A DNA stretch of 64,000 nucleotides from Escherichia coli (GTDB lineage Bacteria > Pseudomonadota > Gammaproteobacteria > Enterobacterales > Enterobacteriaceae), in the NCBI RefSeq assembly GCF_030013595.1, contig NZ_CP122771.1, one strand, 5' to 3'. Of this stretch, positions 7,969 through 61,174 are shown piece by piece. Position 1 is the stretch's first letter. Each line of letters begins with the position of its first letter. The position numbers and the translations under genes are program-made. A model generated the notes under the pieces. It saw only the letters and a list, made by a program, of their open reading frames with translations, was not told the origin of the DNA and did not search any database.

Positions 7969-7993
7969 AACTACTAATTCTGAAGGATTTTTT

Positions 7994-8455: not shown

Positions 8456-8484
8456 ATGTGTAAACAAAAACAGAGGAGGGTGTA

Positions 8485-8937
8485 ATGAGTAATAATATAA
8501 AATATGGCTCCAGAATACTTGATATGGGTGTTCTGCTGGAGATGAAAGCGCTTGTGAATGCAAATGGTGGTGTGTCACGGTGCATTATGGAGTGCCGGCA
8601 GCTTGCCTGTGAGGTCCGTCATTCGCAACAATTACTGGATAAGCTGTCATGTATTGACGACTGGCTGTGCCGGTTTTCCTCAATAATGTATCACCGTTTT
8701 GATAAAGAACAGATTCAGTGGCGGGAGGATGTGGACAGGAATTATCCCAGAGAAAAAGTTTATATTTTCAGTCCCGATGATGTCTCCGTCCATAATAATG
8801 ATATTAAAGACTCTGCCAATAACACATCAGGAATAACCGTGTCGGTTACAGCCAGTAAAATATTTGCAGGTCAGAAAGAGTTTGATGCTTTTTTAAAACT
8901 GGCAGAAAAACTGAGAGAAAACCCTACGGGTAATTAA
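8485..8937 (+). CDS. Hypothetical protein, second gene of traU-trbC insert
   Basis: 150-aa ORF with GGAGG-like RBS (cagaggagggtgtaATG); Cys-rich N-terminal half; no motif recognised. Confidence 0.45.
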   Translation: MSNNIKYGSRILDMGVLLEMKALVNANGGVSRCIMECRQLACEVRHSQQLLDKLSCIDDWLCRFSSIMYHRFDKEQIQWREDVDRNYPREKVYIFSPDDVSVHNNDIKDSANNTSGITVSVTASKIFAGQKEFDAFLKLAEKLRENPTGN

Positions 8938-8964
8938 ATTGTAATAATGCCATCAGGATATATC

Positions 8965-9603: not shown

Positions 9604-11450
9604 AACGTATGTTACCTCTGATACTGGCTCTGGTTGCCGGCATGGCACAGGCTGACAGCAACAGTGATTACCGGGCCGGTTCTGATTTTGCTCACCAGAT
9701 CAAAGGACAGGGAAGCAGCAGTATTCAGGGCTTTAAGCCACAGGAGAGTATCCCCGGCTATAACGCGCATCCGGACGAGACAAAATATTACGGTGGCGTG
9801 ACTGCCGGCGGGGATGGCGGCCTGAAAAATGACGGCACCACGGAATGGGCGACCGGTGAAACCGGAAAAACCATCACAGAGTCCTTCATGAACAAGCCGA
9901 AAGACATTCTTTCACCGGATGCACCGTTCATTCAGACCGGCAGGGATGTGGTGAACCGGGCTGACAGCATTGTGGGAAACACAGGCCAGCAGTGTAGTGC
10001 ACAGCAGATAAACCGCAGTGAATTCACAAACTATACCTGTGAACGGGACACGATGGTGGAGGAGTATTGCACACGGACTGCCAGGATCACCGGAGACTGG
10101 AAATACACAGATGAATATCGTGAGGTGACGATACCGCACTCACAGTTCCGGTTCAGTATGAACGGGCTGAAACTGGTGTTCAGTGTCACGGCTCCGGTAA
10201 CCGGTACAGTGGAAAGTGCATCATTGTCTGTATACGCCGCTTTTTTCTTCCTGAACTCTCGTTATACCTTCATGAATTCAACGTTCAATGTTGGCCTGGT
10301 AAACGGGCAGTCGGGTACTTTCCCCCTGTCCGGGGCGACAGGTTTGCAGGTGACACAAGGGCAGGTTCTGACCGGCAGTGGCTGTACTGCTAACGGTAAC
10401 TGTCTTTCTGGCGGGAACGGTGACCGACAGGTTTATGAGAAACTGGCCAGCGGCGCGTCCACCTTTACACTGAAACTCAGGATGAAGGTCCGTGATAAAG
10501 AATGGGTTCCACGGGTGGAGTGGGTGGAGAGTTGTCCGTTTAATAAAGCGGATGGCGTGCTGAAAGGCACTGAGTGTTCAGAGCCGGGTGGTACGAAAAC
10601 TGGTGTGATGGAAGGTAAACCCTGGAGCATCACACAGGCGTGCTGGGCATACCGGGATAAATATGTCACACAGTCCGCAGATAATGGTACCTGTCAGAAA
10701 TATGTCGATAATCCGGCCTGTACGCTGGCCTCACGTCAGTGCGCGTTTTATTCCGATGAGGGAACCTGTCTGCATGAGTATGCCACGTACTCCTGCGAGT
10801 CAAAAACATCAGGAAAAGTGATGGTCTGTGGTGGTGATGTCTTCTGCCTTGACGGTGAATGCGATAAGGCGCAGAGCGGAAAAAACAGTGATTTTGGTGC
10901 AGCCGTATCACAGCTGGCTGCGCTTGCCGCTGCTGGTAAGGATGTTGCCGCCCTGAATGGTGTGGATGTCAGGGCTTTCACCGGCGAGGCGAAATTCTGC
11001 CGTAAGGCCGCAGCCGGCTTCAGTAACTGCTGTAAGGATGGTGGCTGGGGTCAGGATGTGGGTCTGGCGAAGTGTAACAGTGAAGAAAAGGCGCTGGGAA
11101 AGGCAAAGGACAACAAACTGACGGTGAGTGTTGGCGAGTTCTGTTCGAAAAAGGTACTCGGTGTCTGCCTGCAGAAAAAGCGCAGCTACTGCCAGTTTGA
11201 TTCGAAACTGGCGCAGATAGTCCAGCAGCAGGGGCGTAACGGGCAGCTGCGTATCGGGTTTGGCAGCGCCAAAAGTCCTGACTGTCGTGGAATAACCGTG
11301 GATGAACTGCAGCGTATTAAGTTCGACCAGCTGGACTTCACTAACTTCTACGAAGACCTGATGAATAACCAGAAAATCCCGGACAGTGGTGTTCTGACGC
11401 AGAAAGTGAAAGAACAGATTGCTGACCAGCTGAAACAGGCAGGACAGTAA
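9600..11450 (+). CDS. traN: TraN, outer-membrane mating-pair stabilisation protein
   Basis: 616 aa, signal peptide, Cys-rich C-terminal region; synteny. Confidence 0.9.
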   Translation: MKRMLPLILALVAGMAQADSNSDYRAGSDFAHQIKGQGSSSIQGFKPQESIPGYNAHPDETKYYGGVTAGGDGGLKNDGTTEWATGETGKTITESFMNKPKDILSPDAPFIQTGRDVVNRADSIVGNTGQQCSAQQINRSEFTNYTCERDTMVEEYCTRTARITGDWKYTDEYREVTIPHSQFRFSMNGLKLVFSVTAPVTGTVESASLSVYAAFFFLNSRYTFMNSTFNVGLVNGQSGTFPLSGATGLQVTQGQVLTGSGCTANGNCLSGGNGDRQVYEKLASGASTFTLKLRMKVRDKEWVPRVEWVESCPFNKADGVLKGTECSEPGGTKTGVMEGKPWSITQACWAYRDKYVTQSADNGTCQKYVDNPACTLASRQCAFYSDEGTCLHEYATYSCESKTSGKVMVCGGDVFCLDGECDKAQSGKNSDFGAAVSQLAALAAAGKDVAALNGVDVRAFTGEAKFCRKAAAGFSNCCKDGGWGQDVGLAKCNSEEKALGKAKDNKLTVSVGEFCSKKVLGVCLQKKRSYCQFDSKLAQIVQQQGRNGQLRIGFGSAKSPDCRGITVDELQRIKFDQLDFTNFYEDLMNNQKIPDSGVLTQKVKEQIADQLKQAGQ

Positions 11451-11473
11451 AGCAGGGAAAATAACCGGGGAAA

Positions 11474-11734
11474 ATGATGAAGGTCATATTCACTTCTAAT
11501 CGTATTGTTGATTTTATTATCCGGCTTTTGATTACAGCGATTGTCATTTCTCCGGTAATTATCTGGTCGTGGGATACGGTAAAAGAAACCACGGCAGACG
11601 GGATGCTTGCCGCTGCTTTCGTTATCCTTTACTCCGGTGTGCTCCTGTTTATTCTGTATTTTTGTTTTTCTGCCCTGACTGACCTGCAGAAACCTGATGA
11701 AAGAAAAAGTGATGAAAGGAATGAAGATGAATAA
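11474..11734 (+). CDS. trbE: TrbE
   Basis: 86-aa membrane protein matching F TrbE. Confidence 0.75.
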   Translation: MMKVIFTSNRIVDFIIRLLITAIVISPVIIWSWDTVKETTADGMLAAAFVILYSGVLLFILYFCFSALTDLQKPDERKSDERNEDE

Positions 11735-12470
11735 AGCATTACTGCCACTGTTACTCTGCTGCTTTATTTTTCCGGCGTCAGGAAAAGATGCAGGCTGGCA
11801 GTGGTATAACGAGAAAATAAATCCGAAGGAAAAAGAAAATAAACCTGTACCTGCAGCCCCCCGTCAGGAACCGGATATTATGCAGAAACTGGCCGCACTG
11901 CAGACGGCAACAAAGCGGGCGCTGTACGAAGCCATTCTGTATCCCGGCGTGGATAATTTTGTGAAATATTTCCGGCTGCAAAATTACTGGACTCAGCAGG
12001 CCGGGCTTTTCACCATGAGCGCCAGAAAGGCCATGCTGGCGCATCCCGAACTGGACTATAACCTGCAGTACAGCCATTACAACGGCACGGTCCGGAACCA
12101 GCTGGCGGCAGACCAGGCGCAGCAGCGACAGGCCATTGCGAAACTGGCTGAACACTACGGCATCATGTTTTTTTACCGGGGGCAGGACCCCATCGACGGG
12201 CAACTGGCGCAGGTCATTAATGGCTTCCGGGATACGTATGGTCTGAGTGTTATTCCCGTTTCCGTGGATGGCGTGATTAATCCGCTGTTGCCGGATTCCC
12301 GGACTGACCAGGGGCAGGCGCAGCGCCTCGGCGTGAAATATTTCCCGGCCATGATGCTGGTTGACCCGAAACAGGGCAGTGTTCGCCCGTTATCATACGG
12401 CTTTATTTCGCAGGACGACCTGGCAAAACAGTTCCTGAACGTTTCTGAAGATTTTAAACCCAATTTTTAA
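11727..12470 (+). CDS. traF: TraF, thioredoxin-fold pilus assembly protein
   Basis: Starts MNKALLPLLLCCFIFPASG as in F TraF; ORF extends upstream to 11697. Confidence 0.9.
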   Translation: MNKALLPLLLCCFIFPASGKDAGWQWYNEKINPKEKENKPVPAAPRQEPDIMQKLAALQTATKRALYEAILYPGVDNFVKYFRLQNYWTQQAGLFTMSARKAMLAHPELDYNLQYSHYNGTVRNQLAADQAQQRQAIAKLAEHYGIMFFYRGQDPIDGQLAQVINGFRDTYGLSVIPVSVDGVINPLLPDSRTDQGQAQRLGVKYFPAMMLVDPKQGSVRPLSYGFISQDDLAKQFLNVSEDFKPNF

Positions 12471-12485
12471 TCGCGGATTTGATTT

Positions 12486-12833
12486 ATGAGTGAAGATTAT
12501 TTGAAAATGTTTACAGGTGTTGTTCTGTTAATATTTGTCATTATTGCCGGTTATTTCTTTTCTGAGCGTAATGACAGGAAAATGTTTCTCCTGAGCTCAC
12601 TGGTTTTCCTTGTTATTAATATCGCGTGTTTATATGTGCTTACCGCCAGTCTCTGGTTTCTGTGTGGTGCAATTATGAGTCAGGGCGCAGCACTGGTTGT
12701 TTCAATAGTTGCGGCCGCATTACCGGACGTTACGAGCTTCGACAGGTTCAGAAGAATATTTATCTGTATTATGTTGTCATCGGTATGGTCCGGAGTGATG
12801 TGGTTTTTTATAAGGGGGCTTATGACAGGCTAA
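12486..12833 (+). CDS. trbA: TrbA
   Basis: 115-aa polytopic membrane protein; synteny. Confidence 0.7.
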   Translation: MSEDYLKMFTGVVLLIFVIIAGYFFSERNDRKMFLLSSLVFLVINIACLYVLTASLWFLCGAIMSQGAALVVSIVAAALPDVTSFDRFRRIFICIMLSSVWSGVMWFFIRGLMTG

Positions 12834-12888
12834 GTCATATAAAACGGTCATAAAAACCATACAAAATAATGAGGTTGATTACTGAAGA

Positions 12889-13149
12889 TCATATGATAAA
12901 CCATACCGCAATCCAGTGGCTTCTGAATAGCTCGCAAAAATAAATATAGATAATTGAAAATAACCATAATACAACGATGCCTGCTGCGATACTTAATAAA
13001 CTTATTACAAGATAGTCAGGGAAGGCATTGACCGGTAATGAATGTGATGCTGCATATATCAGCGCAATAATTGCCGCATTTCCCAGTAACGACTCTCTTA
13101 TTATGTTTCTGATTATTTCCAGTTTTTCTTTAAAAGATCGCTTTTCCAT
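12889..13149 (-). CDS. artA: ArtA-like membrane protein, antisense within tra operon
   Basis: 86-aa minus-strand ORF between trbA and traQ, the position artA occupies in F; AT-rich. Confidence 0.5.
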   Translation of the reverse strand: MEKRSFKEKLEIIRNIIRESLLGNAAIIALIYAASHSLPVNAFPDYLVISLLSIAAGIVVLWLFSIIYIYFCELFRSHWIAVWFII

Positions 13150-13229
13150 TTGTACCTCTGATTAATATCACACAAACGCGAATATTACAGACATGAATAC
13201 TCTCATGTAAATAATAACCGGAGTTTAAC

Positions 13230-13514
13230 ATGATAAGTAAACGCAGATTCTCTTTACCCCGGCTTGATATTACGGGAATGTGGGTATTTTCCCTGGGTGT
13301 CTGGTTTCATATCGTCGCCCGTCTTGTTTACAGCAAACCCTGGATGGCTTTTTTTCTGGCGGAGCTGATTGCGGCCATCCTTGTGCTGTTCGGCGCATAC
13401 CAGGTGCTGGATGCATGGATTGCCCGTGTCAGCCGGGAAGAGCGTGAGGCACTGGAAGCCAGGCAACAGGCCATGATGGCAGAGCAGCAGGAGGGCGGAC
13501 ATGTCTCTCACTAA
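13230..13514 (+). CDS. traQ: TraQ, pilin chaperone
   Basis: 94 aa starting MISKRRFSLPRLDITGMWVF, matching F TraQ. Confidence 0.85.
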   Translation: MISKRRFSLPRLDITGMWVFSLGVWFHIVARLVYSKPWMAFFLAELIAAILVLFGAYQVLDAWIARVSREEREALEARQQAMMAEQQEGGHVSH

Positions 13515-14046
13515 ATTACTGCCGGTCATTTTGTTGATGATGGCCACAGGTGTGCAGGCCTCCACCCGGGATGAAATTGAACGACTCTGGAATCCGCAGG
13601 GTATGGCCGCGCAGCCTGCACAACCGGCAGCAGACACATCAGCCAGGACAGAAAAGCCGGCTCCCCGCTGGTTCCGCCTCAGCAACGGCAGGCAGGTTAA
13701 CCTGGCCGACTGGAAGGTGGTGCTGTTTATGCAGGGGCATTGCCCTTACTGCCACCAGTTTGACCCGGTACTGAAGCAGTTGGCACAGCAGTACGGCTTT
13801 TCCGTTTTTCCCTACACCCTGGATGGTCAGGGGGATACCGCCTTTCCGGAAGCATTACCGGTGCCACCGGAGGTGATGCAGACCTTCTTCCCGAATATCC
13901 CGGTGGCCACACCGACCACCTTCCTGGTCAACGTCAACACGCTTGAGGCATTACCGCTTTTACAGGGGGCAACGGATGCCGCCGGTTTTATGGCGCGGAT
14001 GGATACCGTTCTGCAGATGTACGGAGGAAAAAAAGGTGCGAAATAA
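13501..14046 (+). CDS. trbB: TrbB, thioredoxin-like disulfide isomerase
   Basis: 181 aa, signal peptide, CPYC active site. Confidence 0.85.
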   Translation: MSLTKLLPVILLMMATGVQASTRDEIERLWNPQGMAAQPAQPAADTSARTEKPAPRWFRLSNGRQVNLADWKVVLFMQGHCPYCHQFDPVLKQLAQQYGFSVFPYTLDGQGDTAFPEALPVPPEVMQTFFPNIPVATPTTFLVNVNTLEALPLLQGATDAAGFMARMDTVLQMYGGKKGAK

Positions 14047-14317
14047 GCAGGTGGTGTTACTCATTGCCGGAATATCCGGCATCGCGACGGGAATAATCGT
14101 CAGCCTGAATATCCCCTTTATCCGTCAGGGGCTTTTTTATCCCGCCAGCCCTGTAGAAATTGTCGTTTCGCTGTGCCTTACCTTTTCTGTTTCTGTTGTG
14201 TTTTTTGTGGGGGCAATTGTGGGATGGATTTTGGTGTCTGAAATATATTACAGCTGCATGACCAGTCTGAATAAATTATCAGAAATATCAGAGGGAACTT
14301 ATAATGAAAGAAAATAA
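14036..14317 (+). CDS. trbJ: TrbJ
   Basis: GTG start giving MRNKQVVLLIAG...; small membrane protein; synteny. Confidence 0.65.
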   Translation: MRNKQVVLLIAGISGIATGIIVSLNIPFIRQGLFYPASPVEIVVSLCLTFSVSVVFFVGAIVGWILVSEIYYSCMTSLNKLSEISEGTYNERK

Positions 14318-14696
14318 AAATAATCCTGAACTCAAAATCAGAAGTACAGAACGAGATTATAAATACATTTCCAGAATTACTGACAGGTATGCTGTATTGT
14401 CTCTGGTATTCCTGACTGCCGGAATTGTTTTATGGATAGTTATGAATATTATTTTTGATGCCTGTATTGATTCGTGGAAAGCGGACCCGGAATTAAATAA
14501 CGTACGTTATATGTGGAACATCCTGATGTATGCCATTCCGTGTACGTTATGGGCGCTTGCATCCGGCTTTTTTGTTGCGGGTTATCTGCTGCCTTTATGT
14601 GCGTTACCAGTCAGAAATATCAGGATATTCCTGTTGAAACGCCGTATGCGCCGGGAGAACACATTAAGGGAGGGCAGCAATAATGCTTCGCATTAA
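14304..14696 (+). CDS. trbF: TrbF
   Basis: 130-aa membrane protein; synteny. Confidence 0.7.
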   Translation: MKENKNNPELKIRSTERDYKYISRITDRYAVLSLVFLTAGIVLWIVMNIIFDACIDSWKADPELNNVRYMWNILMYAIPCTLWALASGFFVAGYLLPLCALPVRNIRIFLLKRRMRRENTLREGSNNASH

Positions 14697-16056
14697 GCCT
14701 CTTTTTATTCTTTGTGCCGCCTTACTGACGGTGACGCCTGCAGCGTCAGCGGATGTGAACAGCGACATGAATCAGTTCTTTAACAAGCTGGGCTTCGCCT
14801 CCAATACCACACAGTCGGGCGTCTGGCAGGGGCAGGCTGCCGGCTATGCTTACGGCGGCTCCCTGTATGCCCGTACTCAGGTCAAAAATGTTCAGCTGAT
14901 TTCCATGACGCTGCCGGATATCAATGCCGGATGTGGCGGCATCGATGCCTACCTCGGTTCGTTCAGTTTTATTAATGGCGAGCAGCTGCAGCGTTTTGTT
15001 AAGCAGATTATGAGCAATGCTGCCGGTTACTTCTTTGACCTTGCCCTGCAGACAACGGTGCCGGAAATTAAAACCGCAAAAGACTTCCTGCAGAAAATGG
15101 CAAGCGACATTAACAGTATGAACCTCAGTTCCTGCCAGGCGGCGCAGGGGATTATCGGCGGGCTTTTCCCCCGGACGCAGGTGTCCCAGCAAAAAGTCTG
15201 TCAGGACATTGCCGGTGAGAGCAATATTTTTGCTGACTGGGCGGCTTCCCGGCAGGGATGTACCGTTGGCGGTAAATCTGACAGCGTCAGGGATAAAGCC
15301 AGCGACAAGGATAAGGAGCGGGTGACCAAAAACATTAACATCATGTGGAATGCGCTTTCCAAAAACAGAATGTTTGACGGCAACAAAGAGCTGAAAGAGT
15401 TTGTGATGACGCTGACCGGCTCACTGGTGTTTGGTCCCAACGGCGAAATCACACCGCTGTCGGCCAGAACCTCTGACCGCTCAATTATCCGGGCCATGAT
15501 GGAAGGCGGCACAGCAAAAATTTATCACTGCAACGATTCTGATAAATGCCTGAAAGTGGTGGCTGACACACCGGTGACCATCAGCCGGGATAATGCACTG
15601 AAGTCTCAGATTACTAAACTTCTGGCCAGCATTCAGAACAAAGCGGTCAGTGACACGCCTCTGGATGACAAGGAAAAAGGTTTTATTTCCAGTACCACCA
15701 TCCCCGTCTTCAAATACCTGGTTGACCCGCAGATGCTCGGTGTTTCCAACAGTATGATTTACCAGCTGACGGACTATATCGGTTACGACATCCTGCTGCA
15801 GTACATTCAGGAGCTGATACAGCAGGCCCGGGCGATGGTGGCCACGGGAAATTATGACGAAGCAGTTATCGAACATATTAACGACAATATGAATGATGCC
15901 ACCCGGCAGATTGCGGCGTTTCAGTCACAGGTGCAGGTACAGCAGGATGCGCTGCTGGTTGTCGATCGTCAGATGAGCTACATGCGTCAGCAGCTTTCCG
16001 CCCGCATGCTCAGTCGTTACCAGAACAACTATCACTTCGGAGGGAGCACACTGTGA
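14683..16056 (+). CDS. traH: TraH, pilus assembly protein
   Basis: 457 aa with signal peptide; synteny. Confidence 0.9.
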   Translation: MLRIKPLFILCAALLTVTPAASADVNSDMNQFFNKLGFASNTTQSGVWQGQAAGYAYGGSLYARTQVKNVQLISMTLPDINAGCGGIDAYLGSFSFINGEQLQRFVKQIMSNAAGYFFDLALQTTVPEIKTAKDFLQKMASDINSMNLSSCQAAQGIIGGLFPRTQVSQQKVCQDIAGESNIFADWAASRQGCTVGGKSDSVRDKASDKDKERVTKNINIMWNALSKNRMFDGNKELKEFVMTLTGSLVFGPNGEITPLSARTSDRSIIRAMMEGGTAKIYHCNDSDKCLKVVADTPVTISRDNALKSQITKLLASIQNKAVSDTPLDDKEKGFISSTTIPVFKYLVDPQMLGVSNSMIYQLTDYIGYDILLQYIQELIQQARAMVATGNYDEAVIEHINDNMNDATRQIAAFQSQVQVQQDALLVVDRQMSYMRQQLSARMLSRYQNNYHFGGSTL

Positions 16057-34999: not shown

Positions 35000-35330
35000 G
35001 GAGGCATTCGCACGCCTGAAGCCTGTCAGCGAACAAAAAAGCAGCACTGCATACAAAAAACAATCTCATCATCCACCTTCAGGTGCATCCGGTTCCCCCT
35101 GTTTTTGATGCAAAACACCTCCCACAGACGGGTAATTTTGCTTATCCACATTTAACTGCAAGGGACTTCCCCATAAGGTTACAACCGTTCATGTCATAAA
35201 GCGCCAGCCGTCAGCGTTACAGGGTGCAATGTATCTTTTAAACACCTGTTTATATCTCCTTTAAACTACTTAATTACATTCATTTAAAAAGAAAACCTAT
35301 TCACTGCCTGTCCTGTGGACAGACAGATAT
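35000..35330. promoter_or_regulatory. Putative vegetative replication origin (oriR)
   Basis: AT-rich non-coding region immediately downstream of repA1, as in R1/R100; not confirmed by motif. Confidence 0.35.
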
Positions 35331-35878
35331 GCACCTCCCACCGCAAGCGGCGGGCCCCGACCAGAAACTATTTAGTTACAACACTCAAATACAACCACCG
35401 GAAGAACCCCGGTCCCGCGCAGAACTGAAACCACAAAGCCCCTCCTCATAACTGAAAAGCGAGGCCGCCCCCGCCCAAAGGGCGGGAACAACATCGCTTT
35501 TAATTATGAATGTTGTAACTACATTATCATCGCTGCCAGTTCTCTGGCTGGAAGTCCTCAGTACACGCTCGTAAGCGGCCCTCACGGCCCGCTAACGCGG
35601 AGATACGCCCCGACTTCGGGTAAACCCTTGTCGGGACCACTCCGACCGCGCACAGAAGCTCTCTCATGGCTGAAAGCGGGTATGGTCTGGCAGGGCCGGG
35701 GATGGGTAAGGTGAAATCTATCAATCAGTACCGGCTTACGCCGGGCTTCGGCGGTTTTACTCCTGTATCATATGAAACAACAGAGTGCCGCCTTCCATGC
35801 CGCTGATGCGGCATATCCTGGTGACGATATCTGAATCGTTATATACTGTGTATATACGTAGTAATGACGAGGTGATAA

Positions 35879-36148
35879 ATGGCACAGGTTAATATGAGTT
35901 TAAGAATCGACGCTGAACTGAAGGATGCTTTTATGGCCGCTGCAAAAAGCATGGACCGTAATGGCTCTCAGTTAATCCGGGATTTTATGCGCCAGACCGT
36001 TGAACGGCAGCATAATACCTGGTTCCGTGACCAGGTTGCGGCAGGACGTCAGCAACTCGAGCACGGCGATGTGCTTCCCCATGACATGGTCGAATCTTCT
36101 GCTGCTGCATGGCGGGATGAGATGAGCAGGAAGATTGCCGGTAAATGA
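35879..36148 (+). CDS. ParD/RelB-like ribbon-helix-helix antitoxin
   Basis: 89 aa; N-terminal MAQVNMSLRIDAELKDAFMAAA typical RHH; stop overlaps next ORF (ATGA). Confidence 0.6.
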   Translation: MAQVNMSLRIDAELKDAFMAAAKSMDRNGSQLIRDFMRQTVERQHNTWFRDQVAAGRQQLEHGDVLPHDMVESSAAAWRDEMSRKIAGK

Positions 36149-36309
36149 TGGAGATATTTTGGACCATGCTGGCCAGCCAGGACAGGAAGCGCATTCGTGA
36201 GTACATTGCGGAGCAGAACCTGATGGTCGCCATTGAACTGGACGAACGGATTGGTTATTTCGGACGAACGCACCGGCTTACGCCGGTTTTACATCTGTAC
36301 TACATGTAA
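36145..36309 (+). pseudogene. Truncated ParE/RelE-like toxin
   Basis: 54-aa ORF with ParE-like N-terminus (EIFWTMLASQDRKRIREYIAEQN) ending prematurely, about half the usual length. Confidence 0.4.
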
Positions 36310-36356
36310 CCTCATACACACATAAATGAGTAACATACTGATTAATATGGTAAATC

Positions 36357-37280
36357 ATGACGATTGAAAGCTTTTTTATTGGCACCCGCCGCTCTGATAA
36401 ACGTTACGGGCCTCAGAGCAAGGATATGCAGGTTTCTGAATTCATTTCTCTGATTTCTCCCCAAAATGCCCCTCATAAGGTTGTGTTACCTGATTTTACT
36501 GGTCTGGCAATTCAGCTTGATGCACAAATCAGGAACCAGTTTCATCAACTGAAAGAGGATGAGCACTTCCTTCGATATCGGCAGTTGTCGGAAAGGTGGT
36601 ATCAGGCGGACTCTATTAGTGACAGAAACAACCGCAGTAAGCGTTTTGAGAAGATCATGGATGACTCACTTGATTTTTTGCTTTACAGCCAAGACGTCAT
36701 GCCTAACATCAATCCAGATGATCTCCAATGGCATGATTACGAAAAGGCTAGCAGTAAGGGTAAAATGTACTGTGTAGCGCTTCTGTTCCATGTCATTGCA
36801 CGGGCTGCATATGAACCCGAATCTGTGGGTAAAGATCCGACACTTCCAGAATATTGCCGGTGGATGAAAAATTGGATAGAGAAAACATTAGGTCATGATT
36901 TTTTAGATAGAATGATGATCTATTGTGCGCTGTTTGCCCCAGCGTATTTTCCCGCGTTACAACGTCTGAGCGGAGAGAAAGAAACGCGTGATGTCCATGA
37001 ATTCCTGGCTGAGCATGTTCGCACTTTAGCTCAAAAAAATTCTTCAGAGGTAAATTATAGAGATCAACGGCAATTCACGTTTGGCTACACCATGTTCACG
37101 AAGCAACAATTTGAATTTCTGGGCATGATGCGCGATGTCCATTACCGGATTGATTGTATTGAACAGCTCCTTCTGGACCTTATAGAACGTAAGGTTGTGG
37201 ATTTCACTGATGCATCTGTTGCAGGCACGTGGATTGAGAAGCAAATTCAGCGGCTTGAATCAAACGACGTAAAGCAGTAA
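36357..37280 (+). CDS. Hypothetical 307-aa protein
   Basis: Long ORF with plausible RBS; followed by hairpin 37321-37345; no motif recognised. Confidence 0.45.
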   Translation: MTIESFFIGTRRSDKRYGPQSKDMQVSEFISLISPQNAPHKVVLPDFTGLAIQLDAQIRNQFHQLKEDEHFLRYRQLSERWYQADSISDRNNRSKRFEKIMDDSLDFLLYSQDVMPNINPDDLQWHDYEKASSKGKMYCVALLFHVIARAAYEPESVGKDPTLPEYCRWMKNWIEKTLGHDFLDRMMIYCALFAPAYFPALQRLSGEKETRDVHEFLAEHVRTLAQKNSSEVNYRDQRQFTFGYTMFTKQQFEFLGMMRDVHYRIDCIEQLLLDLIERKVVDFTDASVAGTWIEKQIQRLESNDVKQ

Positions 37281-37371
37281 CCCTCTGAACTGTAAATTGG
37301 GTAGTCAGATTTAATTATTGGCACCTGTTCATAGGTGCCACCTTTCTGAAAGAATGTATCCTAATTTTTCG

Positions 37372-37890
37372 ATATCCAAACTGACCCCTATTTTAGATGT
37401 TTCATTTATCACACCCTAAAGCTGAATATTTATCACAAGCCATTTTTACCGATAAATAACTAAGGCGATCAATGCCAATGGACTTACAATAATAAACAGA
37501 TTCTTTTTTGCTATTCAGGTTCGTAACACGGGGTCTGAAGTCCAATGGAACGAAAACGTACGTTAGTGAAGTAACTGTATGATATATCAAGACATAATGG
37601 ACATAGAAAAACGCCATCAAAACGGTGTCTTTTTAATCGAAAATTGGCACTTAACGGACGGCATTGTCTACTAATCGATTTTTAGACGATAATTTTCCTC
37701 TTACCGTACATTTTCGTACGGTTGGCCCTCAAACCCCGATTTGAACTCAATCGGATAACCTGAATGCAATACCGCAATGGCGATAATTTAAAAGCGATAG
37801 CCGTTGACGCAAAATCAATCCGTTACGCATCTCTATTGGTTAAATAATGCGCTTAACGTACAAAATTTTCCCATATCCAAACTGACCCCT
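37372..37890. repeat. 18-bp direct repeats atatccaaactgacccct (37372-37389 and 37873-37890) bracketing about 500 bp of non-coding DNA
   Basis: Exact repeat read from sequence; internal palindrome accgtacattttcgtacggt. Confidence 0.6.
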
Positions 37891-37899
37891 TAAAGGACA

Positions 37900-38235
37900 T
37901 CAACACGCATTCGGCGTTTTTTCTTGTCCAATTGTGATTTTCGTGAGCTCCGTATCAGTGAAATTTCCCTTTCCTGATTCTGTGTCAAAGTCACCAGGTT
38001 TGAACCGGTGTACATCCTGCCATATAGAGAAACAGGTGTGGCAGGTGACAGGCAGTTCTCCATCAGCCACCTTTTCGCAGTTTTCAATCAGTACCCGTTC
38101 CTTATTGTATTGTAAGTTATAACCACTTGTGCAAAGCGTTTCATACCCGTGAGCGCCTGTCACGATATGTGTGGCAATCCGTTCCCTGACTTTTCCGTTC
38201 ACTAATAACTGTTCACGTGTGGTGATCGTTCGCAT
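37900..38235 (-). CDS. Hypothetical small Cys-containing protein
   Basis: Minus-strand ORF with AGGAAG RBS before second ATG; contains CHTC; coding status uncertain. Confidence 0.3.
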   Translation of the reverse strand: MRTITTREQLLVNGKVRERIATHIVTGAHGYETLCTSGYNLQYNKERVLIENCEKVADGELPVTCHTCFSIWQDVHRFKPGDFDTESGKGNFTDTELTKITIGQEKTPNAC

Positions 38236-38329
38236 TCTCTTCCTCATCAGCTTTCCTGTAGAAGCCTCCTGACTATAAGGCTCCGGATATCTTACCCGCT
38301 CATTTTGGCTGGAGGTAGTGGTGGCGTCA

Positions 38330-38560
38330 GAGGATGAATTACTGACATTGTATATGAAGCTTTGAGTTTTTTCTGGATTTCATCAGTGTTTATCTTTATT
38401 TGTTCTTGTTTGTTCTCTTTTGTGCTGTTGGAGTCGGTTTTTGTCTGTGTTTTTCTTTATTTTTCCATTTGTGGCCGATATCAGGTCTTTACCGATACGT
38501 TGTTTTAGGTGATAATCGTTTTTGATCTCGTATTTTTCTAAAAAAATCCATTTTATTTAT
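38330..38560. promoter_or_regulatory. Putative parC-like centromere/promoter region
   Basis: AT-rich region with short reiterated motifs directly upstream of stbA. Confidence 0.3.
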
Positions 38561-38572
38561 GTGAGGTTCTAG

Positions 38573-39553
38573 ATGCGTATCTTTGTAGACGACGGCTCTA
38601 CCAACATCAAACTGGCCTGGGTTGAAGACGGTGCAGTGAAAACGTTAATTAGTCCGAATAGTTTTAAGCCGGAATGGTCTATGACGCTGCAGGGACTGAC
38701 TGATGCCACTGTACCCGCTTCCGCAAACTATGAGATTGATGGAGAAAAATACAGCTTTGATCAATTGAGTCCGGATGCAGTGCGCACCACAGAAACGCGT
38801 TATCAGTACAGCGACGTTAATGTGGTTGCTATTCATCATGCGTTGATGCAGTCAGGTATTGCTCCACAACCTGTTGATATTGTTGTGACTTTACCTTTAG
38901 GTGAGTATCTGGATGAGAACGATCAGCCAAATCTGGCTAATATCGAACGTAAGAAAAATAATGTCCGGCGAACTGTAACAGTTCAGGGGCGTGAAAACTT
39001 TACCATTCGTAAAGTCAGTGTCTTGCCTGAGTCCGTGCCTGCCGGTTTTGACGTGCTGAAAGATCTGAATGATCTGGAGTCGCTGTTGATTGTTGATATC
39101 GGTGGAACGACCCTTGATATTGCACATGTCCGCAGCAAAATGTCAGGTTTCACAAAAACCTATTGTGACCCCAAGACTGGCGTCTCCATCATTACTGAAG
39201 CAGTTAAGCATGCGATGGATGTGAATGTGAGTACACGAACCAGTTCTTATTTTGCAGATCGTCTAATCCAGGGCCGGGATGACAATGAATTCCTGACCCG
39301 TTATATCCCGAATGCAGAACAGCGTGAGCGGATCCTGACAGTATTACGTGACCGGGAAAAAAAACTGCAGCATCGTGTGGCGGATTCAGTAGGACGCTTT
39401 GCTGGTTTTACTCATGTTATGGTTGTTGGCGGTGGTGCCAGCCTTGTGGCTGGGGCAGTAAAAAAAGCGACAGGAGTGGGTGATAACCGTTTCTTTGTCA
39501 GTGACAATCCTCAGTTCGATCTGGTGTTGGGAATGATGGCAATGAAGGGATGA
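38573..39553 (+). CDS. stbA: StbA/ParM actin-like partition ATPase
   Basis: 326 aa; MRIFVDDGSTNIKLAW, DIGGTTLD and VVGGGA motifs as in R1 ParM. Confidence 0.9.
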   Translation: MRIFVDDGSTNIKLAWVEDGAVKTLISPNSFKPEWSMTLQGLTDATVPASANYEIDGEKYSFDQLSPDAVRTTETRYQYSDVNVVAIHHALMQSGIAPQPVDIVVTLPLGEYLDENDQPNLANIERKKNNVRRTVTVQGRENFTIRKVSVLPESVPAGFDVLKDLNDLESLLIVDIGGTTLDIAHVRSKMSGFTKTYCDPKTGVSIITEAVKHAMDVNVSTRTSSYFADRLIQGRDDNEFLTRYIPNAEQRERILTVLRDREKKLQHRVADSVGRFAGFTHVMVVGGGASLVAGAVKKATGVGDNRFFVSDNPQFDLVLGMMAMKG

Positions 39554-39978
39554 GTATGGCTGATAATCGTAAGTGCTCTTTTTATATTTATCCGGAACGA
39601 AATGCAGCTGATCGGGTGGCTGACAGGTTTCTTGAAAAATTGCCTCAGAAAGAACGTGGTCGGGCAATGCGGGCCATGATGTTGTGTGGTGCTGCATTGA
39701 TGAAGCAGGATGAACGATTGCCGTTCCTGATAGCTGAATTCCTGACAGACAGCACGTCTATGCAGGATATTCAACGAATTATCAGTAGTACGCTACCACA
39801 ACAGGAAAATGGTGAAGTCGTTCGTTTGCTGGAGGCATTTCTGCAGTCTGCTGGTAATAATGCAAAAGCGATCCTGCCTGCGGTTGATTCTGCTACGCAA
39901 GAAATATCTGCTCCAGTCGATCAGAATCTCCTGGAAACAAGAAACAACATTAAGAACTTGTTTCCGGATGATGAATAA
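39550..39978 (+). CDS. stbB: StbB/ParR partition adaptor
   Basis: 142 aa overlapping stbA stop; similar organisation to R1 ParR. Confidence 0.8.
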   Translation: MSMADNRKCSFYIYPERNAADRVADRFLEKLPQKERGRAMRAMMLCGAALMKQDERLPFLIAEFLTDSTSMQDIQRIISSTLPQQENGEVVRLLEAFLQSAGNNAKAILPAVDSATQEISAPVDQNLLETRNNIKNLFPDDE

Positions 39979-40014
39979 GAACTGAACTCTGTTAAAGGAC
40001 GCTGTTGCGTCCTT

Positions 40015-40378
40015 TTTTCTTTTCCGACAAAGGATGTCGCCGGGCTCCTCTTTTTACTGCGCCGGCTGACGCGGCGCGGCAGGAACGCTGCCTGTGGTCA
40101 GTATCCCGCGTCCGGCCGGGCACGGGACGGGCGCTTTTACCGCTCCCGGCTGGCGTCGGTGGCAGTGTACGCCAGCCCGTCGCCCTTTTCTGATGAACGC
40201 CCTTCAAGCCGCTTTCGCGGCATATCCTCGCCGTCAAACAGACGACGGCTGCGGTATTCCACGGTCGGCCTGACCCGTTATCGGACGCGGTGAACAGCCC
40301 ACAGGCCGCGGGGAACGGGCGCCACAGGGGCGCCCTCCCGGTGCTCTCTGCTGAAGCAGAAGTGAGAGGAGAATTCCC
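40015..40378 (+). repeat. Leading-region direct repeat family B, copy 1 (about 360 bp, includes RBS of downstream gene)
   Basis: Near-identical to 41338-41687; begins after stbB terminator hairpin; ends at ATG of 40379 ORF. Confidence 0.85.
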
Positions 40379-41305
40379 ATGCCAAACTGGTGCTCAAATC
40401 GTATGCATTTTTCTGGTGAACCGGCACAGATTGCTGAGATTAAACGACTGGCCAGCGGTGCAGTCACACCGTTTTATCGCCGCGCCACAAATGAAGGTAT
40501 TCAGCTGTTTCTGGCCGGAAGTGCCGGACTTCTGCAGACCACTGAAGATGTGCAGTTTGAACCGTGCCCCGGAGTGACGGCTGCCGGACGTGGTGTTGTA
40601 TCGCCGGAGAATATCGCGTTCACCTGCTGGCTGACACACCTGCAGAACGGTGTGCTACTGGATGAACAAAACTGCCTGATGCTGCATGAACTCTGGCTGC
40701 AGAGTGGTACTGGCCAGCGTCGCTGGGAAGGATTACCGGATGAGGTCAGGGAAACCATCACCGTGCATTTCACCGCCAAAAGAGGTGACTGGTGTGGCTT
40801 CTGGAGTAACGAGGATGTATCGGTGTGGTGGAACCGTCTGTGTGACAATGTACTGCCGGAAAAAACCATGCCGTTTGACCTGCTGACGGTTCTGCCCACC
40901 CGCCTGGATGTTGAAGTGAATGGCTTTAACGGTGGTGTTCTGAATGGTGTTCCTTCTGCGTATCACTGGTATACGGAACAGTATGGCGTGAAGTGGCCTG
41001 TGGGGTATGAGGTGAATATCAGCCGTCAGGGAGAAAACTTCATTCAGGTGGATTTCGACACGCCGTGGTGTCAGCCGGAAAGCAACGTTGTTGCAGAATT
41101 AAGCCGCCGTTTCGGCTGCACGCTGGAGCACTGGTACGCCGAACAGGGCTGCAATTTCTGTGGCTGGCAGTTGTATGAGCGCGGAGAGCTCGTTGATGTG
41201 CTGTGGGGGGAACTGGAATGGTCTTCCCCGACAGATGACGATGAGCTGCCGGAAGTCACCGGACCTGCGTGGATAGTCGACAAGGTGGCGCATTATGGCG
41301 GATGA
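40379..41305 (+). CDS. Conserved leading-region hypothetical protein
   Basis: 308-aa ORF immediately downstream of repeat B1. Confidence 0.6.
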   Translation: MPNWCSNRMHFSGEPAQIAEIKRLASGAVTPFYRRATNEGIQLFLAGSAGLLQTTEDVQFEPCPGVTAAGRGVVSPENIAFTCWLTHLQNGVLLDEQNCLMLHELWLQSGTGQRRWEGLPDEVRETITVHFTAKRGDWCGFWSNEDVSVWWNRLCDNVLPEKTMPFDLLTVLPTRLDVEVNGFNGGVLNGVPSAYHWYTEQYGVKWPVGYEVNISRQGENFIQVDFDTPWCQPESNVVAELSRRFGCTLEHWYAEQGCNFCGWQLYERGELVDVLWGELEWSSPTDDDELPEVTGPAWIVDKVAHYGG

Positions 41306-53566: not shown

Positions 53567-55138
53567 TTACTGAGAGGTCAGATCAACTTTCCAGGGCAAC
53601 AGATCGCGTACCCGGTTTGCCGGCCAATCCTGGATATGCTCAATGACGTAACGCAGCCATTTTTCTGGTTCCACATTGTTCAGACGGCATGTGCCGATCA
53701 GCGAGTACAACACCGCCGCATGTTCGCCACCGCTGTCGGAACCCGCGAAGAGCCAGTTTTTCCGGCCTACGGCCACTCCCCGTAAGGCGTTCTCTGCGAT
53801 GTTGTTGTCGATTTCCACCCAGCCATTACTGCAGTACACGTTCAGGGCCTCCCACTGTTTCAGCAGGTATGCGAACGCTTTTGCCGTATCCGAGTGACGC
53901 GACAGTGTTTTCATCTGTTCCTGTATCCAGTCATACAGTGACTGCATCAGTGGAGCCGCTCTGGCTTTTCTTGCTGCCAGACGCTGTTCTGCTGAACATC
54001 CCCGGACTTCTGCCTCGATGACATACAGTTCACCGATACGCTGCAGGGCTTCCGTGGTGATGTCGGTTGGCACTCTTGCATGCACATCGTGGATTTTTCT
54101 CCGGGCATGGGCCATACACGCGGCTTCCGTTATTCTGCCGGATTCGTATAACGCCCGGTAACCACCGTAAGCATCTGCCTGAAGCACACCGCTGTAACCG
54201 GCCAGGTGATTCTGTGGATGGATACCTTTCCGGTCCGGGCTGTACGCGAACCAGACCGCCGGGGGCATCTGTGAACCGGCGTTACGGTCATCACGGACAT
54301 AGACCCACAGCCGGGCAGTTCTTGTTTTACCACTGCCCGGCTCCTGGACCGGAACGGGGATATCATCCGCATGGACTTTACCGGGCATCAGCACATACTG
54401 GCGCAGCACGTCATACAGCGGCTCCAGCAGTTCAGCAACGGCACCGGTCCAGCGCCCCAGCGTGGCGCGGCTCAGTTCCACGCCCTGACGAAGGTATATT
54501 TCTGACTGGCGGTATAACGGCAGATGGTCTGCATACTTCCCGGTGACGATATGAGCCAGAAGCCCCGCTCCGGCATAACTGCGTGCAATGGGTTTTGAAG
54601 GTACTGGTGCCTGCACGATATGGTCGCACCGGCAACAGGCCAGTTTCGGACGTTGTGTTTCGATAACCTTAAAAGCGCTGCTGATAAGCTCCAGTTGCTC
54701 TGACACATCACACCCCAGAGGACTGAGGTCACCACCACAGGCCGGGCAGCATTCCTCTTCCGGCCGGATGACCCGGGTTTCACGGGGAAGTGAGGCCGGT
54801 AACGGCTTACGGGCTGAAGACTGGCGCAGGGCGGATGGCAGTACCGGGTCATATTGCTCATCCAGCGTTTCCGCCATTTCTTCCTGAAGTGCGCTGATTC
54901 GCTCCTGGGCTTCCTGTATCTGCCGTTCGGTTTTAGCGCGAAGTTTTTCTGAGCTTTTACCGAACTGCATGCGCTGCAGTTTCGCAACCAGCGCCTTCAG
55001 CCGGTTGATTTCGGAAGCATAAGCCGCCACCCGCTGTGAGAGCAGGCGGTTGTATTTCGCCATCTGGCGGATGGTGTCCTGTTGCGTCTGCAACAGTGCC
55101 CGCAGGCGGGCATTCTCATGAGCAAGTGAGGTGTCCAT
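53567..55138 (-). CDS. IS66-family transposase (OrfC)
   Basis: 523 aa with N-terminal coiled coil, CxxC...CxxC zinc motif and DDE-type core. Confidence 0.9.
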
Positions 55139-56994: not shown

Positions 56995-59339
56995 GGGTCG
57001 GGTAGCAGCGGCACATTGCTGCGCCGCCGCCCCCTAAGAACGGAGCGTGCGAGTTTTCCCGCACTCCGCTCAAGCCTTTATAAGTGCTTTCGGTGAGCAC
57101 CGGCTTCCCTGCTGTGTAACTGTCGGTGGCAGTTCGGATGTAACAACTCGAGATTGGTCAGTTCGTCACTGCCGCCCATAACTTTCCTGATCCGGTGATG
57201 TATATTCCATCCGGTCTGGTTGGTTATGAGTTGTCCGCACTGCGGACAGTGTTTCCCCTGCCTCTTCCAGAGTTGAACTACTGTCTTCATCTTCTTTGAT
57301 TTGCCTTTCCAGATTAGATCCAGACGACGTTCAAAGTAGATTTCCATTCCGGGGGTGTATGGTGTTGCTTCGCCTTTGATTTTTATATGGCGCTTTATCG
57401 GTGTTTCCATTGCCCGGAAGAGTGTCAGAATTTTCCCTTCCGGGGTTATGGCTTTAAAGATCCAGCGCCTGCCTTCAAAGGAGAAGTATCGTCCGGCGAT
57501 CCACCGCAATCCTTTCCGGGGATGCCGTCTTACACACCATCGCCATATAGCTCGCCAGATTTGGGTGTCGACATAATTAAATGTTTCTTTCGCCACGACG
57601 TGTCGGTGATAGGTAGCCCATCCCCGGATCACCGGGTTTAGCTGGCCTATCAGTTTCCATGCCGGGAGCGTCGGATTGCGTTTAATTATTTCTCTGACTT
57701 TACAGAGGAAGTTCTTCAGGTTTTTCTTCGACGGTTTAATCAGCATTTTACCGTTGTACTTCCTGACGTTCTGCCCTAAAAAGTCGAAGCCTTTATCTAT
57801 ATGTGTGATCGCTGTTTTTTCTTCCGACAGTTCCAGCCCTCGTTCGCGCATGAAAGCTGCAATCAGTGGTCTGACCTCATTTTCCAGCAATTCACGGGAG
57901 CTGCCTGAACAGATGAAATCATCAGCATATCTCACATAATTCACCTGGTGCTTTGCACTGTGATAACCACTTTTCCTGAACGTTTGCATCAGTTCCTTCT
58001 CCAGTCCGTCCAGAGCCATGTTGGCGAGAACAGGGGATATGATGCCTCCCTGCGGTGTCCCGCTGTTCGTATGGTTAAACACGCCTCTTTCCATGTAACC
58101 TGCTTTCAACCATTTTTTAAGCAGTCTCCTGTCCATCGGAATATGGGAAAGCAGCCAGTCATGGCTGATGTTATCGAAACACCCTTTAATATCGCCCTCC
58201 AGTATCCATTTGGGCGATACTTTCTGGCTCATCCGCAGAAAAATGGACTCAATGGCGTCATGCGTGCTGCGCATTGGTCTGAAACCATAGCTGTTATGGT
58301 CAGCAGTGGTCTCGGATACGGGTTCCAGAGCCAGCAGCCACAGTGCCTGCATGGCCCGGTCCCTCATTGTGGGTATGCCCAGCGGTCGCGTTTTGCCGTT
58401 TGATTTTGGGATATGTATTCGCCGTAGTGGCTGTGGCCTGTAACCACACAGATTCAGGCTGCATATTCCTTCCCATTTCTCCTTCGGTGTGTGCCATATT
58501 TTTCCGTCAATACCGGGTGTCCTTTTACCGGTATTTTCAGTTACACGCCTGACAGCCACGGCTTTGCCGGAGAATGAGCGGGTGAGGATGCGCTGTAGTT
58601 CTCTGACCTGCCGCCATTGTTGCTGTCGGGTTGCCTTTGCAATCCGTAACTGTAGCTTTCGCACCCGGGCATGGCATGCTTTCCAGTTTATGGTGTGCCA
58701 GCCTGTCGGGTGGGGTATCGTGGACACACTGATGTGTGTATTCATCTCGCTGATATCCTTTTGACTGCTTTACAGCTTTTCATGCAATTAAAGACCAGAC
58801 GGAAGTCTGCCCGCTTTCGCGTCGGGGAACCTGCCCCGTATCCCGGTTATTACGGCCGGGCATTCGCTTTTTCCGTCCTCCTATGCCCGCACCGCTAACA
58901 GTGTTCCTTGCGGTTCACCTGCCTGTGAGGCAGCGATACGGGTTTACCAGGTTCCGCTTAACATACAGAGGGTCAGGGCGGGTTCTGTCTCTTCACCGGG
59001 GGTCTCTGCGCCCATGTGCTCCCTGTGCGCGAGGTAGCAACCGGACCCCGTACCTTTTGGTTCAGGCCTGTCAGCATCTTTGGCCTGTTGCCGATAACGG
59101 TGTTTATCAACAGTTCACATGTGTTAACCCTTCTGACCAGCCTTGCTCTCCTGCCGCATGATGCTTGCAGCAAGGTAAAGCCCCTCACGGGGCTTTACCC
59201 GGGCTGACGCCCGGCTCTCGTTGTCCCGGGAGCTTCAGACCCCGCCGTTGCCGGCAACGCCTGTCCCGGTAGGCTACAGCTAATGGGATAGCTGGTTTTA
59301 TCAATGTAAAACAATACGTTAAGCGACTTCCTGTCGCAC
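56995..59339 (-). mobile_element. Group II intron, boundaries +/-10 bp
   Basis: 5' end GTGCGACAGG on minus strand; domain V-like hairpin GAGCGGAGTGCGGGAAAACTCGCACGCTCCGTTC near 3' end (+ coords about 57030-57063); encodes RT/maturase/HNH ORF. Confidence 0.8.
57078..58745 (-). CDS. Group II intron-encoded reverse transcriptase/maturase with HNH endonuclease
   Basis: 555 aa; RT motifs incl. YADD (VRYADDFIC); C-terminal CPQCG...H..H HNH. Confidence 0.9.
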   Translation of the reverse strand: MNTHISVSTIPHPTGWHTINWKACHARVRKLQLRIAKATRQQQWRQVRELQRILTRSFSGKAVAVRRVTENTGKRTPGIDGKIWHTPKEKWEGICSLNLCGYRPQPLRRIHIPKSNGKTRPLGIPTMRDRAMQALWLLALEPVSETTADHNSYGFRPMRSTHDAIESIFLRMSQKVSPKWILEGDIKGCFDNISHDWLLSHIPMDRRLLKKWLKAGYMERGVFNHTNSGTPQGGIISPVLANMALDGLEKELMQTFRKSGYHSAKHQVNYVRYADDFICSGSSRELLENEVRPLIAAFMRERGLELSEEKTAITHIDKGFDFLGQNVRKYNGKMLIKPSKKNLKNFLCKVREIIKRNPTLPAWKLIGQLNPVIRGWATYHRHVVAKETFNYVDTQIWRAIWRWCVRRHPRKGLRWIAGRYFSFEGRRWIFKAITPEGKILTLFRAMETPIKRHIKIKGEATPYTPGMEIYFERRLDLIWKGKSKKMKTVVQLWKRQGKHCPQCGQLITNQTGWNIHHRIRKVMGGSDELTNLELLHPNCHRQLHSREAGAHRKHL

Positions 59340-60235: not shown

Positions 60236-60352
60236 CCGGATGTGATGAATACCCCTCCTGATTGTTGCAATCTTGTTAATGGAGATCGGGGGGATGATAT
60301 TAAGCGGAAAAATTTTTTATTAAATTTATTCTTTCATAAAGGAGTAGCTGTT

Positions 60353-61174
60353 ATGCGATTAGCTTCCCGTTTTGGTCGGTATAATTCCATCCGCCGTGAA
60401 CGTCCTTTAACGGATGATGAATTAATGCAGTTCGTGCCTTCGGTATTTTCCGGTGATAAACATGAGTCCCGGAGTGAACGTTATACGTATATTCCAACAA
60501 TCAATATCATCAATAAGTTACGTGATGAAGGTTTCCAGCCATTCTTTGCCTGTCAGAGTCGGGTTCGTGATTTGGGACGTCGCGAATACAGTAAACATAT
60601 GTTACGTCTTCGCAGGGAAGGGCATATTAACGGACAGGAAGTTCCTGAAATTATCCTGCTTAATTCACATGATGGTTCATCCAGTTATCAGATGATCCCC
60701 GGAATTTTTCGTTTTGTCTGCACAAATGGCCTGGTGTGCGGAAATAATTTTGGCGAAATCCGCGTTCCACATAAAGGTGATATTGTCGGGCAGGTTATCG
60801 AGGGAGCGTATGAAGTGCTCGGTGTCTTTGATAAGGTCACTGATAATATGGAGGCGATGAAAGAAATTCATCTTAACAGTGACGAGCAACATTTATTTGG
60901 CAGAGCTGCACTGATGGTCAGGTATGAAGATGAAAATAAAACGCCAGTGACACCTGAACAGATAATTACTCCCCGTCGTCGGGAAGACAAACAGAACGAT
61001 CTCTGGACAACCTGGCAGCGGGTTCAGGAGAATATGATAAAAGGTGGATTATCGGGGCGAAGTGCCTCCGGGAAAAATACCAGGACAAGAGCCATTACAG
61101 GTATTGATGGTGATATAAGAATCAACAAGGCGTTATGGGTGATTGCCGAACAGTTCAGAAAGTGGAAGTCATGA
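60353..61174 (+). CDS. Conserved leading-region hypothetical protein
   Basis: 273 aa from ATG 60353 with AAGGAG RBS. Confidence 0.55.
   Translation: MRLASRFGRYNSIRRERPLTDDELMQFVPSVFSGDKHESRSERYTYIPTINIINKLRDEGFQPFFACQSRVRDLGRREYSKHMLRLRREGHINGQEVPEIILLNSHDGSSSYQMIPGIFRFVCTNGLVCGNNFGEIRVPHKGDIVGQVIEGAYEVLGVFDKVTDNMEAMKEIHLNSDEQHLFGRAALMVRYEDENKTPVTPEQIITPRRREDKQNDLWTTWQRVQENMIKGGLSGRSASGKNTRTRAITGIDGDIRINKALWVIAEQFRKWKS

Follow-up and report, generated by a model that had tools for sequence, protein, structure and literature searches.

What are two identical 18-nt sequences, set in direct orientation between the replicon and the partition genes of an IncF plasmid? The first-pass annotation of the window (the whole 64-kb stretch of DNA analysed here) had singled out the pair as bracketing an AT-rich, non-coding segment upstream of the partition locus, and had suggested a duplicated binding site, a small RNA locus or an excisable element. 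We consider it very probable that the repeats are instead the outer tips of two decayed MITESen1-family elements that lie in direct orientation, and that the segment is mobile-element debris within the plasmid. MITESen1 is a 256-bp non-autonomous TIME, a Tn3-derived inverted-repeat miniature element; TIMEs require a transposase supplied in trans, generate 5-bp duplications and are rarely annotated (Gomi and Yano, 2026; PMC13367494).

Location and statistics of the repeat pair

The window belongs to an IncF conjugative plasmid, and this region of it is 100% identical to the Escherichia albertii plasmid NZ_CP024284. The gene order runs from traI-traX-finO ... to IncFII repA, yacA, a 307-aa gene, the segment and a 115-aa gene, beyond which lie parM, its StbB-type partner, DUF1281, methylase and antirestriction genes and ssb (Table 1). 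The repeats are placed 683-1210 bp upstream of parM, with the 115-aa gene in between. Neither neighbouring gene carries a recombinase domain. The window contains no homologue of the gamma-delta TnpA or TnpR and, apart from the tra genes, no ORF large enough for a transposase or resolvase of the gamma-delta type.

Several other features of the surroundings were observed. The yacA antitoxin gene (35879-36148) is followed by a short ORF of 54 aa (36145-36309) where a toxin gene is expected, and the toxin gene may be truncated. On the leading-region side of the plasmid, the minus strand carries an IS66-family transposase gene (53567-55138) and a group II intron gene (57078-58745) for a reverse transcriptase/maturase that contains an HNH domain, which make up the remaining mobile-element proteins of the window. 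A DUF932 gene lies at 60242-61174.

The exact 18-mer, ATATCCAAACTGACCCCT, occurs twice on the plus strand of the whole window, at the positions that the first-pass annotation had given, and has no third copy in the 64 kb at up to 3 mismatches. The chance expectation is 0.05, and two matches were found in 0 of 100 dinucleotide-preserving shuffles. The two copies are offset by 501 bp, and their similarity runs leftward to 27 nt, with 25 of 27 positions identical between 37363-37389 and 37864-37890. The statement that each copy is preceded by aattttc is approximate only, as the actual sequences are AATTTTTCG 5′ of copy 1 and AATTTTCCC 5′ of copy 2. The bracketed segment is indeed AT-rich (37% G+C, against 52% for the window). 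The only parts of the segment with a further copy in the window are the repeat itself and the IS101 inverted repeats described below.

Table 1. Features of the repeat-bounded segment and of its neighbourhood (window coordinates).
Feature	Position	Strand	Basis or remark
307-aa hypothetical gene, left neighbour	36357-37280	+	no Pfam match; outside the feature
Hairpin 3′ of the 307-aa gene	37319-37340		outside the feature
Solo IRR-type tip (copy 1)	37363-37388	-	MITESen1 231-256, 23/26
18-mer copy 1	37372-37389	+	exact match to the repeat of the first-pass annotation
Foreign DNA scrap, 141 bp	37389-37529	-	97.9% to pRHB40-C22_2, 3000-3140
Complete IS101 variant, 208 bp	37530-37737	+	194/209 (93%) to pSC101 2024-2232
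IS101 IRL	37530-37567		Tn1000-type 38-bp terminal repeat
IS101 IRR	37700-37737		Tn1000-type 38-bp terminal repeat
Right-hand 152 bp of a MITESen1-family element	37738-37889	+	MITESen1 107-256, 129/150 (86%)
18-mer copy 2	37873-37890	+	exact match to the repeat of the first-pass annotation
115-aa hypothetical gene, right neighbour	37900-38247	-	RefSeq: 111-aa protein WP_001340323.1; outside the feature
parM	38573-39553		partition gene
stbB, StbB-type partner of parM	39550-39978		partition gene

MITESen1-family remnants at the two repeats

Read on the minus strand, both copies correspond to the outer end (GGGGTCAGTTTGGATAT...) of a 38-bp Tn3-family terminal inverted repeat, that of MITESen1, for which we used the reference sequence in Table S2 of Gomi and Yano (2026; PMC13367494). 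The characteristic 38-bp inverted repeat of MITESen1, GGGGTCAGTTTGGA...GTACGTTAAG, is matched at 35 of 38 positions by copy 2 and at 25 of 38 by copy 1. Both tips face the same way, forming a direct and not an inverted repeat. Each ends in CCCC and is followed by a T that belongs to a different flank in the two cases, and it is this T that makes the exact repeat 18 nt long and not 17; at copy 1 it is the base at 37389, which forms part of the adjoining gene scrap.

Copy 2 closes the longer of the two remnants, a right-hand portion of MITESen1 that is without positions 1-106, its left side being cut at the tip of IS101. The IRR of this portion spans 37852-37889 and reads GGGGTCAGTTTGGATATGGGAAAATTTTGTACGTTAAG on the minus strand, and its outer 26 nt (37864-37889) are the second copy of the repeat. 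An identity of 86% over 150 nt is below the 95% or more, in identity and coverage, used by Gomi and Yano, and the remnant is classed as a diverged member of the MITESen1 family. Copy 1 is a solo tip with the minus-strand sequence GGGGTCAGTTTGGATATCGAAAAATT, equivalent to the outer 26 nt of a MITESen1-family IRR-type terminal inverted repeat. Every match of copy 1 to the 38-bp IRR falls within these 26 nt, and no similarity continues further inward. Copy 1 may once have been part of a full MITESen1-family element. The locus holds remnants only: a full-length MITESen1, which measures about 256 bp and has a terminal inverted repeat at each end, is absent, and neither remnant is flanked by a 5-bp target duplication.

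An intact relative of about 225 bp is found in plasmid pEC556_3 (NZ_AP027437.1, positions 1748-1972), without IS101 and with the same right junction, CCCC followed directly by TTAAAGGACATC. Compared with the MITESen1 reference, this short form is different in its left part and lacks about 30 bp. Matches to it occur in 488 plasmid records, in 358 of them over nearly the full length, and in none is the element annotated.

Plasmid F (NC_002483.1) carries CGATCACCAAACTGCCCC at 10184-10201, 12 bp beyond the right end of Tn1000, which matches the MITESen1 IRR tip at 16 of 18 positions (E = 0.056) and may be either a chance match or another solo remnant. A degenerate pattern for Tn3 inverted repeats gave 0 matches; the pattern was over-strict and missed the ends of IS101 too. 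By eye, TAATGCGCTTA within 37838-37860 resembles the XerC arm of a cer/dif-like Xer site; no XerD arm stands at the right spacing, and this candidate was rejected.

A gene scrap and an IS101 variant between the tips

A megablast search with positions 37250-38000 against 72,556 plasmids returned three independent modules with sharp boundaries and no single homologous block. The breakpoints of homology to other plasmids fall at 37388/9, 37529/30, 37737/8 and 37889/90, and all of them are inverted-repeat tips. The 501-bp unit is made of four parts, which are the solo tip, a gene scrap, an IS101 element and MITESen1 positions 107-256.

The homology of the scrap begins right after the CCCC tip of copy 1 and ends at the first G of IS101. 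It comprises 13 bp of intergenic DNA together with the last 41 codons and the stop (37402-37529, minus strand) of a gene for a 148-aa hypothetical protein, and 40 of the 41 amino acids are identical to the C-terminus of the protein of pRHB40-C22_2 (CP057011.1), an IncI1 plasmid. The scrap is also 90.7% identical to the IncHI2 plasmid p23141-mcr, and each of the two plasmids has it as the 3′ end of a gene that adjoins an N-acetylmuramidase gene. The description of the segment as non-coding holds in that no intact gene lies within it, but part of the segment is the end of this reading frame. At 2629-2870, plasmid pRHB40-C22_2 also has a relative of MITESen1 (77% identical) that runs in the direction of copy 1 and stands 129 bp from the homologue of window positions 37389-37529.

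IS101 is likewise a TIME, a miniature element derived from Tn3. The element of pSC101 is 209 bp long, and the IS101 of the window is collinear with it from end to end, with 15 differences. Its terminal inverted repeats, 37-38 nt in length, are of the Tn3 family and agree with the repeat of the Tn1000 (gamma-delta) element in plasmid F at 33 of 38 and 31 of 38 positions. The palindrome noted in the first reading of the sequence, ACCGTACATTTTCGTACGGT, is present at 37703-37722 and lies within the right inverted repeat of IS101. The interior of the element (∼37571-37696) aligns with the tnpR-tnpA intergenic (res) region of the gamma-delta element of F, with a Smith-Waterman score of 146 compared to 72 ± 12 for shuffled sequences, none of which (0 of 300) reaches 146. 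This similarity suggests a res-like core of the gamma-delta/Tn3 type. According to Gomi and Yano (2026; PMC13367494), the res site of IS101 is functional, and Tn1000 functions move and resolve the element.

The coding capacity of the element is limited to short chance ORFs. In the megablast search its boundaries fall at exactly 37530 and 37737, and the 208-bp form is found in 438 plasmid records, in unrelated contexts that include small non-conjugative plasmids. The window copy has no 5-bp target-site duplication, its flanks being AACAC and GATTT. No convincing 5-bp duplications were seen around any of four elements inspected, which were this IS101, the pEC556_3 element, a MITESen1 in small plasmids and the IS101 of pSC101; an informative pair of flanks was seen only inside the two IS101 copies of pE2865-3, described below, where it fits a duplication made earlier in a donor molecule, with recombination afterwards. 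Since no transposase or resolvase of the gamma-delta type is encoded in the window, the elements would be inert here unless helped in trans.

Related plasmids and natural variants

The junction between the right-hand IRR and the 115-aa gene is common to about 250 plasmids. The left junction, in which the terminator of the 307-aa gene is joined to copy 1, is restricted to 41 plasmid records of one lineage, and a search with 37270-37389 for other contexts of the left junction returned the same junction in all 41. The complete arrangement of the window was found in eight plasmid records and in one further record of the E. coli genome set. Among the 41 left-junction records, about 30 have a resistance region after IS101 instead.

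Plasmid pE2865-3 (NZ_AP018811.1, positions 3424-15290) provides an example of the latter, in which 11.4 kb with strAB, tet(A), sul2 and mobV lie between two IS101 copies. The copies are identical and directly oriented, their outer flanks are those of the window and both inner flanks are GGGAG; beyond the second copy come the truncated MITESen1, as in the window, and the 115-aa gene. From its sequence, the module resembles a circle or small plasmid that had an IS101 with a GGGAG duplication and became integrated at IS101, and the window looks like the single-copy state, either resolved or not yet integrated. About 30 related plasmids appear to share the IS101-bounded 11.4-kb module. The structure of pE2865-3 is missing from the TIME-COMPs tabulated by Gomi and Yano (2026; PMC13367494), probably because the variant is just 93% identical to the IS101 of pSC101. 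A Salmonella plasmid has the same IS101-MITESen1 junction with a different left flank; IS101 thus behaves as a recombination joint.

Two plasmids, NZ_CP148291 and p548a, have lost exactly 501 bp and keep one hybrid repeat. The order in this deletion form is the terminator of the 307-aa gene, the single repeat, TTAAAGG and the 115-aa gene. On the left the repeat is of the copy-1 variant (TTTTTCGAT), on the right it has the flank of copy 2, and the junction reads TTTTTCGATATCCAAACTGACCCCTTAAAGG. The 307-aa gene of NZ_CP148291 is about 3% diverged from that of the window, and the deletion plasmids are not immediate relatives of the plasmid studied here. Plasmid p548a is a further rearranged relative of NZ_CP148291, and one deletion event suffices to account for both records. 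On grounds of parsimony, the single-repeat form is taken to be derived and not ancestral, because the copy-2 variant beside TTAAAGG is the widespread state (about 250 plasmids) and because the junction between copy 1 and TATTTTAG had to pre-exist any exchange. As a separate observation, the deletion form of p548a (NZ_JBUBIC010000002.1, 138 kb) is rearranged at 1737-3101, where the final 96 bp of the 307-aa gene are joined to a second block of DUF1281 plus a small ORF, at a point equivalent to window position 37185.

The exact loss of the unit, with one hybrid repeat retained, is what would be expected if the 501 bp were an excisable or integrative cassette whose repeats act as att-like sites for a Tn3-family transposase or another recombinase, and the repeats, as inverted-repeat tips of the Tn3 family, are bona fide transposase-recognition sequences. 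We nevertheless regard such a cassette as improbable. Directly oriented tips are not a known substrate arrangement for Tn3-family transposition (PMC13367494, and general knowledge of the family), checks of the window for gamma-delta homologues, for large ORFs and for mobile-element proteins gave no candidate transposase, resolvase or integrase for the unit, and the 501 bp themselves encode nothing. The content is heterogeneous debris with internal breakpoints of its own, both deletion records belong to one lineage, and an identity of 18-19 nt is sufficient for slippage or for homologous deletion. The earlier suggestion of an excisable element is therefore borne out in one respect, the exact 501-bp loss in two plasmids, but the unit is a patchwork of three transposon remnants and a gene scrap with no recombinase of its own, and the short direct repeats make recombination or slippage between them the best explanation of its loss.

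There is likewise a slim chance that the ∼225-bp MITESen1 form, which adjoins the 115-aa/parM module in hundreds of IncF plasmids, is a still-active, undescribed TIME with a cognate Tn3-family transposase. If so, its directly repeated tips might be used enzymatically, and not through simple homology, in the gain and loss of small modules, the 501-bp unit among them, where the replication and partition regions meet.

The partition locus and regulatory readings

That the repeats are operator- or centromere-like sites, or that the segment is a small RNA or promoter regulating the 115-aa gene or the parM/stbB operon, is very unlikely. The segment is AT-rich, intergenic and upstream of the partition region, and it has one sigma-70-like match (37664-37693) and one terminator-like hairpin (37611-37628), both inside IS101. 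These counts of promoters and terminators are, however, those expected from shuffled sequences, and a search of positions 35000-41000 against Rfam 15 gave no match at E ≤ 1, which leaves the proposed small RNA locus unsupported. Plasmids whose parM/stbB and 115-aa genes are identical lack the segment or have other DNA in its place, and homology to mobile elements explains every piece of it.

Between the 115-aa gene and parM, at 38375-38473, lie T-rich imperfect direct repeats, which are likely a better candidate for the partition centromere or operator than the 18-mer pair. Since this candidate is placed on the far side of the 115-aa gene, the segment falls outside the partition control region. 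The partition locus is more than 680 bp away, beyond the intervening gene, and is intact in plasmids that do not have the segment. As for a duplicated binding site, the term applies trivially, in that the repeats are ends bound by a Tn3-family transposase, but it does not extend to operator or centromere sites for partition. The first-pass annotation had named, as what would speak against it, that the segment is a known part of the stb/parC regulatory region with a repeat conserved nowhere else; this does not apply, as the repeat is found elsewhere as the end of a widespread miniature transposon.

A further reading takes the long imperfect hairpin at 37529-37738 for a signal of the Frpo/ssi type, serving the conjugative leading region as a single-strand promoter or initiation site. 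This is barely credible. The locus is on the leading-region side of the IncF plasmid and the minus strand, as ssDNA, folds better than shuffles (-29.7 kcal/mol, z = -2.76), but the arms of the hairpin are the two terminal inverted repeats of IS101, the same 208 bp recur in the 438 plasmids and unrelated, partly non-conjugative contexts given above, and the locus lies past parMR, at the end of the leading region opposite ssb and psiB.

Proposed origin of the arrangement

We return to the reading of the repeats as tips of two decayed MITESen1-family copies. We infer the order of events and the enzymes involved from the observed sequence identities, breakpoints and variant structures. Neither IS101 nor the MITESen1 remnants have a 5-bp duplication, and the history of rearrangement is thus reconstructed indirectly, not read directly from the locus.

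The arrangement would go back to two MITESen1-family insertions, one of them imported together with the gene scrap. The right-hand copy would be an old insertion just downstream of the 115-aa gene, near parM; it is considered old and common because about 250 IncF plasmids have its junction. The left-hand copy would have come attached to the gene scrap from another plasmid type, and would now be reduced to its last 26 nt. The sequences hint that copy 1 and the scrap arrived together from a region like that of pRHB40-C22_2, because a MITESen1 relative lies close to the same gene in that plasmid.

IS101, which truncates the gene scrap as well as the right-hand MITESen1 copy, is proposed to have inserted between the two tips, and the lack of a target-site duplication suggests a later exchange or deletion of the DNA flanking it on one side. 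Likely routes would be intramolecular replicative transposition, or recombination between two IS101 copies, either through homology or through gamma-delta-type res. The 501-bp deletion may have arisen through the 18-19 identical nucleotides, by recombination between them or by slippage during replication. The IS101 and MITESen1 pieces encode nothing and are passive here, supplying portable homology and recombination sites.

Comparison with known elements

Both IS101 and MITESen1 have already been published, and the arrangement adds one more example to a phenomenon already described. The remnants resemble MITESen1 in having a 38-bp terminal repeat of the same type, in being plasmid-borne in Enterobacteriaceae and unannotated, and in occurring as directly oriented copies. 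They differ in that no complete copy is present here, and the intact relatives at the locus are of the ∼225-bp form. The IS101 of the window shares with that of pSC101 a collinear sequence (93% identity), inverted repeats like those of gamma-delta and an interior resembling res; unlike it, the window copy is 208 bp long with 15 differences, and no Tn1000 is found in the window.

The IS101-bounded resistance module of the sister plasmids is comparable to TIME-COMPs and to TIME-mediated circle integration (Szuplewska et al., 2014, PMC4133298; Gomi and Yano, 2026). Unlike TIME-COMPs, the window has no cargo between like elements, and the IS101-bounded structure is without an outer 5-bp duplication. 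With the parC/ParR centromere-operator of the R1-type ParMRC system, the sole likeness is the position upstream of parM. The 18-mer differs from it in forming two copies 501 bp apart instead of clustered iterons, in being more than 680 bp from parM with a gene between, and in being a transposon end that is dispensable in related plasmids.

Implications for IncF plasmids

The survey of Gomi and Yano applied a cut-off of at least 95% identity, and the variants of the window, at 93% (IS101) and 86% (MITESen1), have diverged enough to escape the search thresholds of that recent work. A by-product of the analysis is the recognition of the short MITESen1 relative, widespread and unannotated in its 488 plasmid records. 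A recombination hot spot lies between the IncFII replicon and the parM locus, and the IS101 variant there is the docking point for the 11.4-kb module of streptomycin, tetracycline and sulfonamide resistance in sister plasmids. The value of these observations lies mainly in annotation and in plasmid epidemiology, where unannotated miniature Tn3-type elements explain odd intergenic repeats in plasmids.
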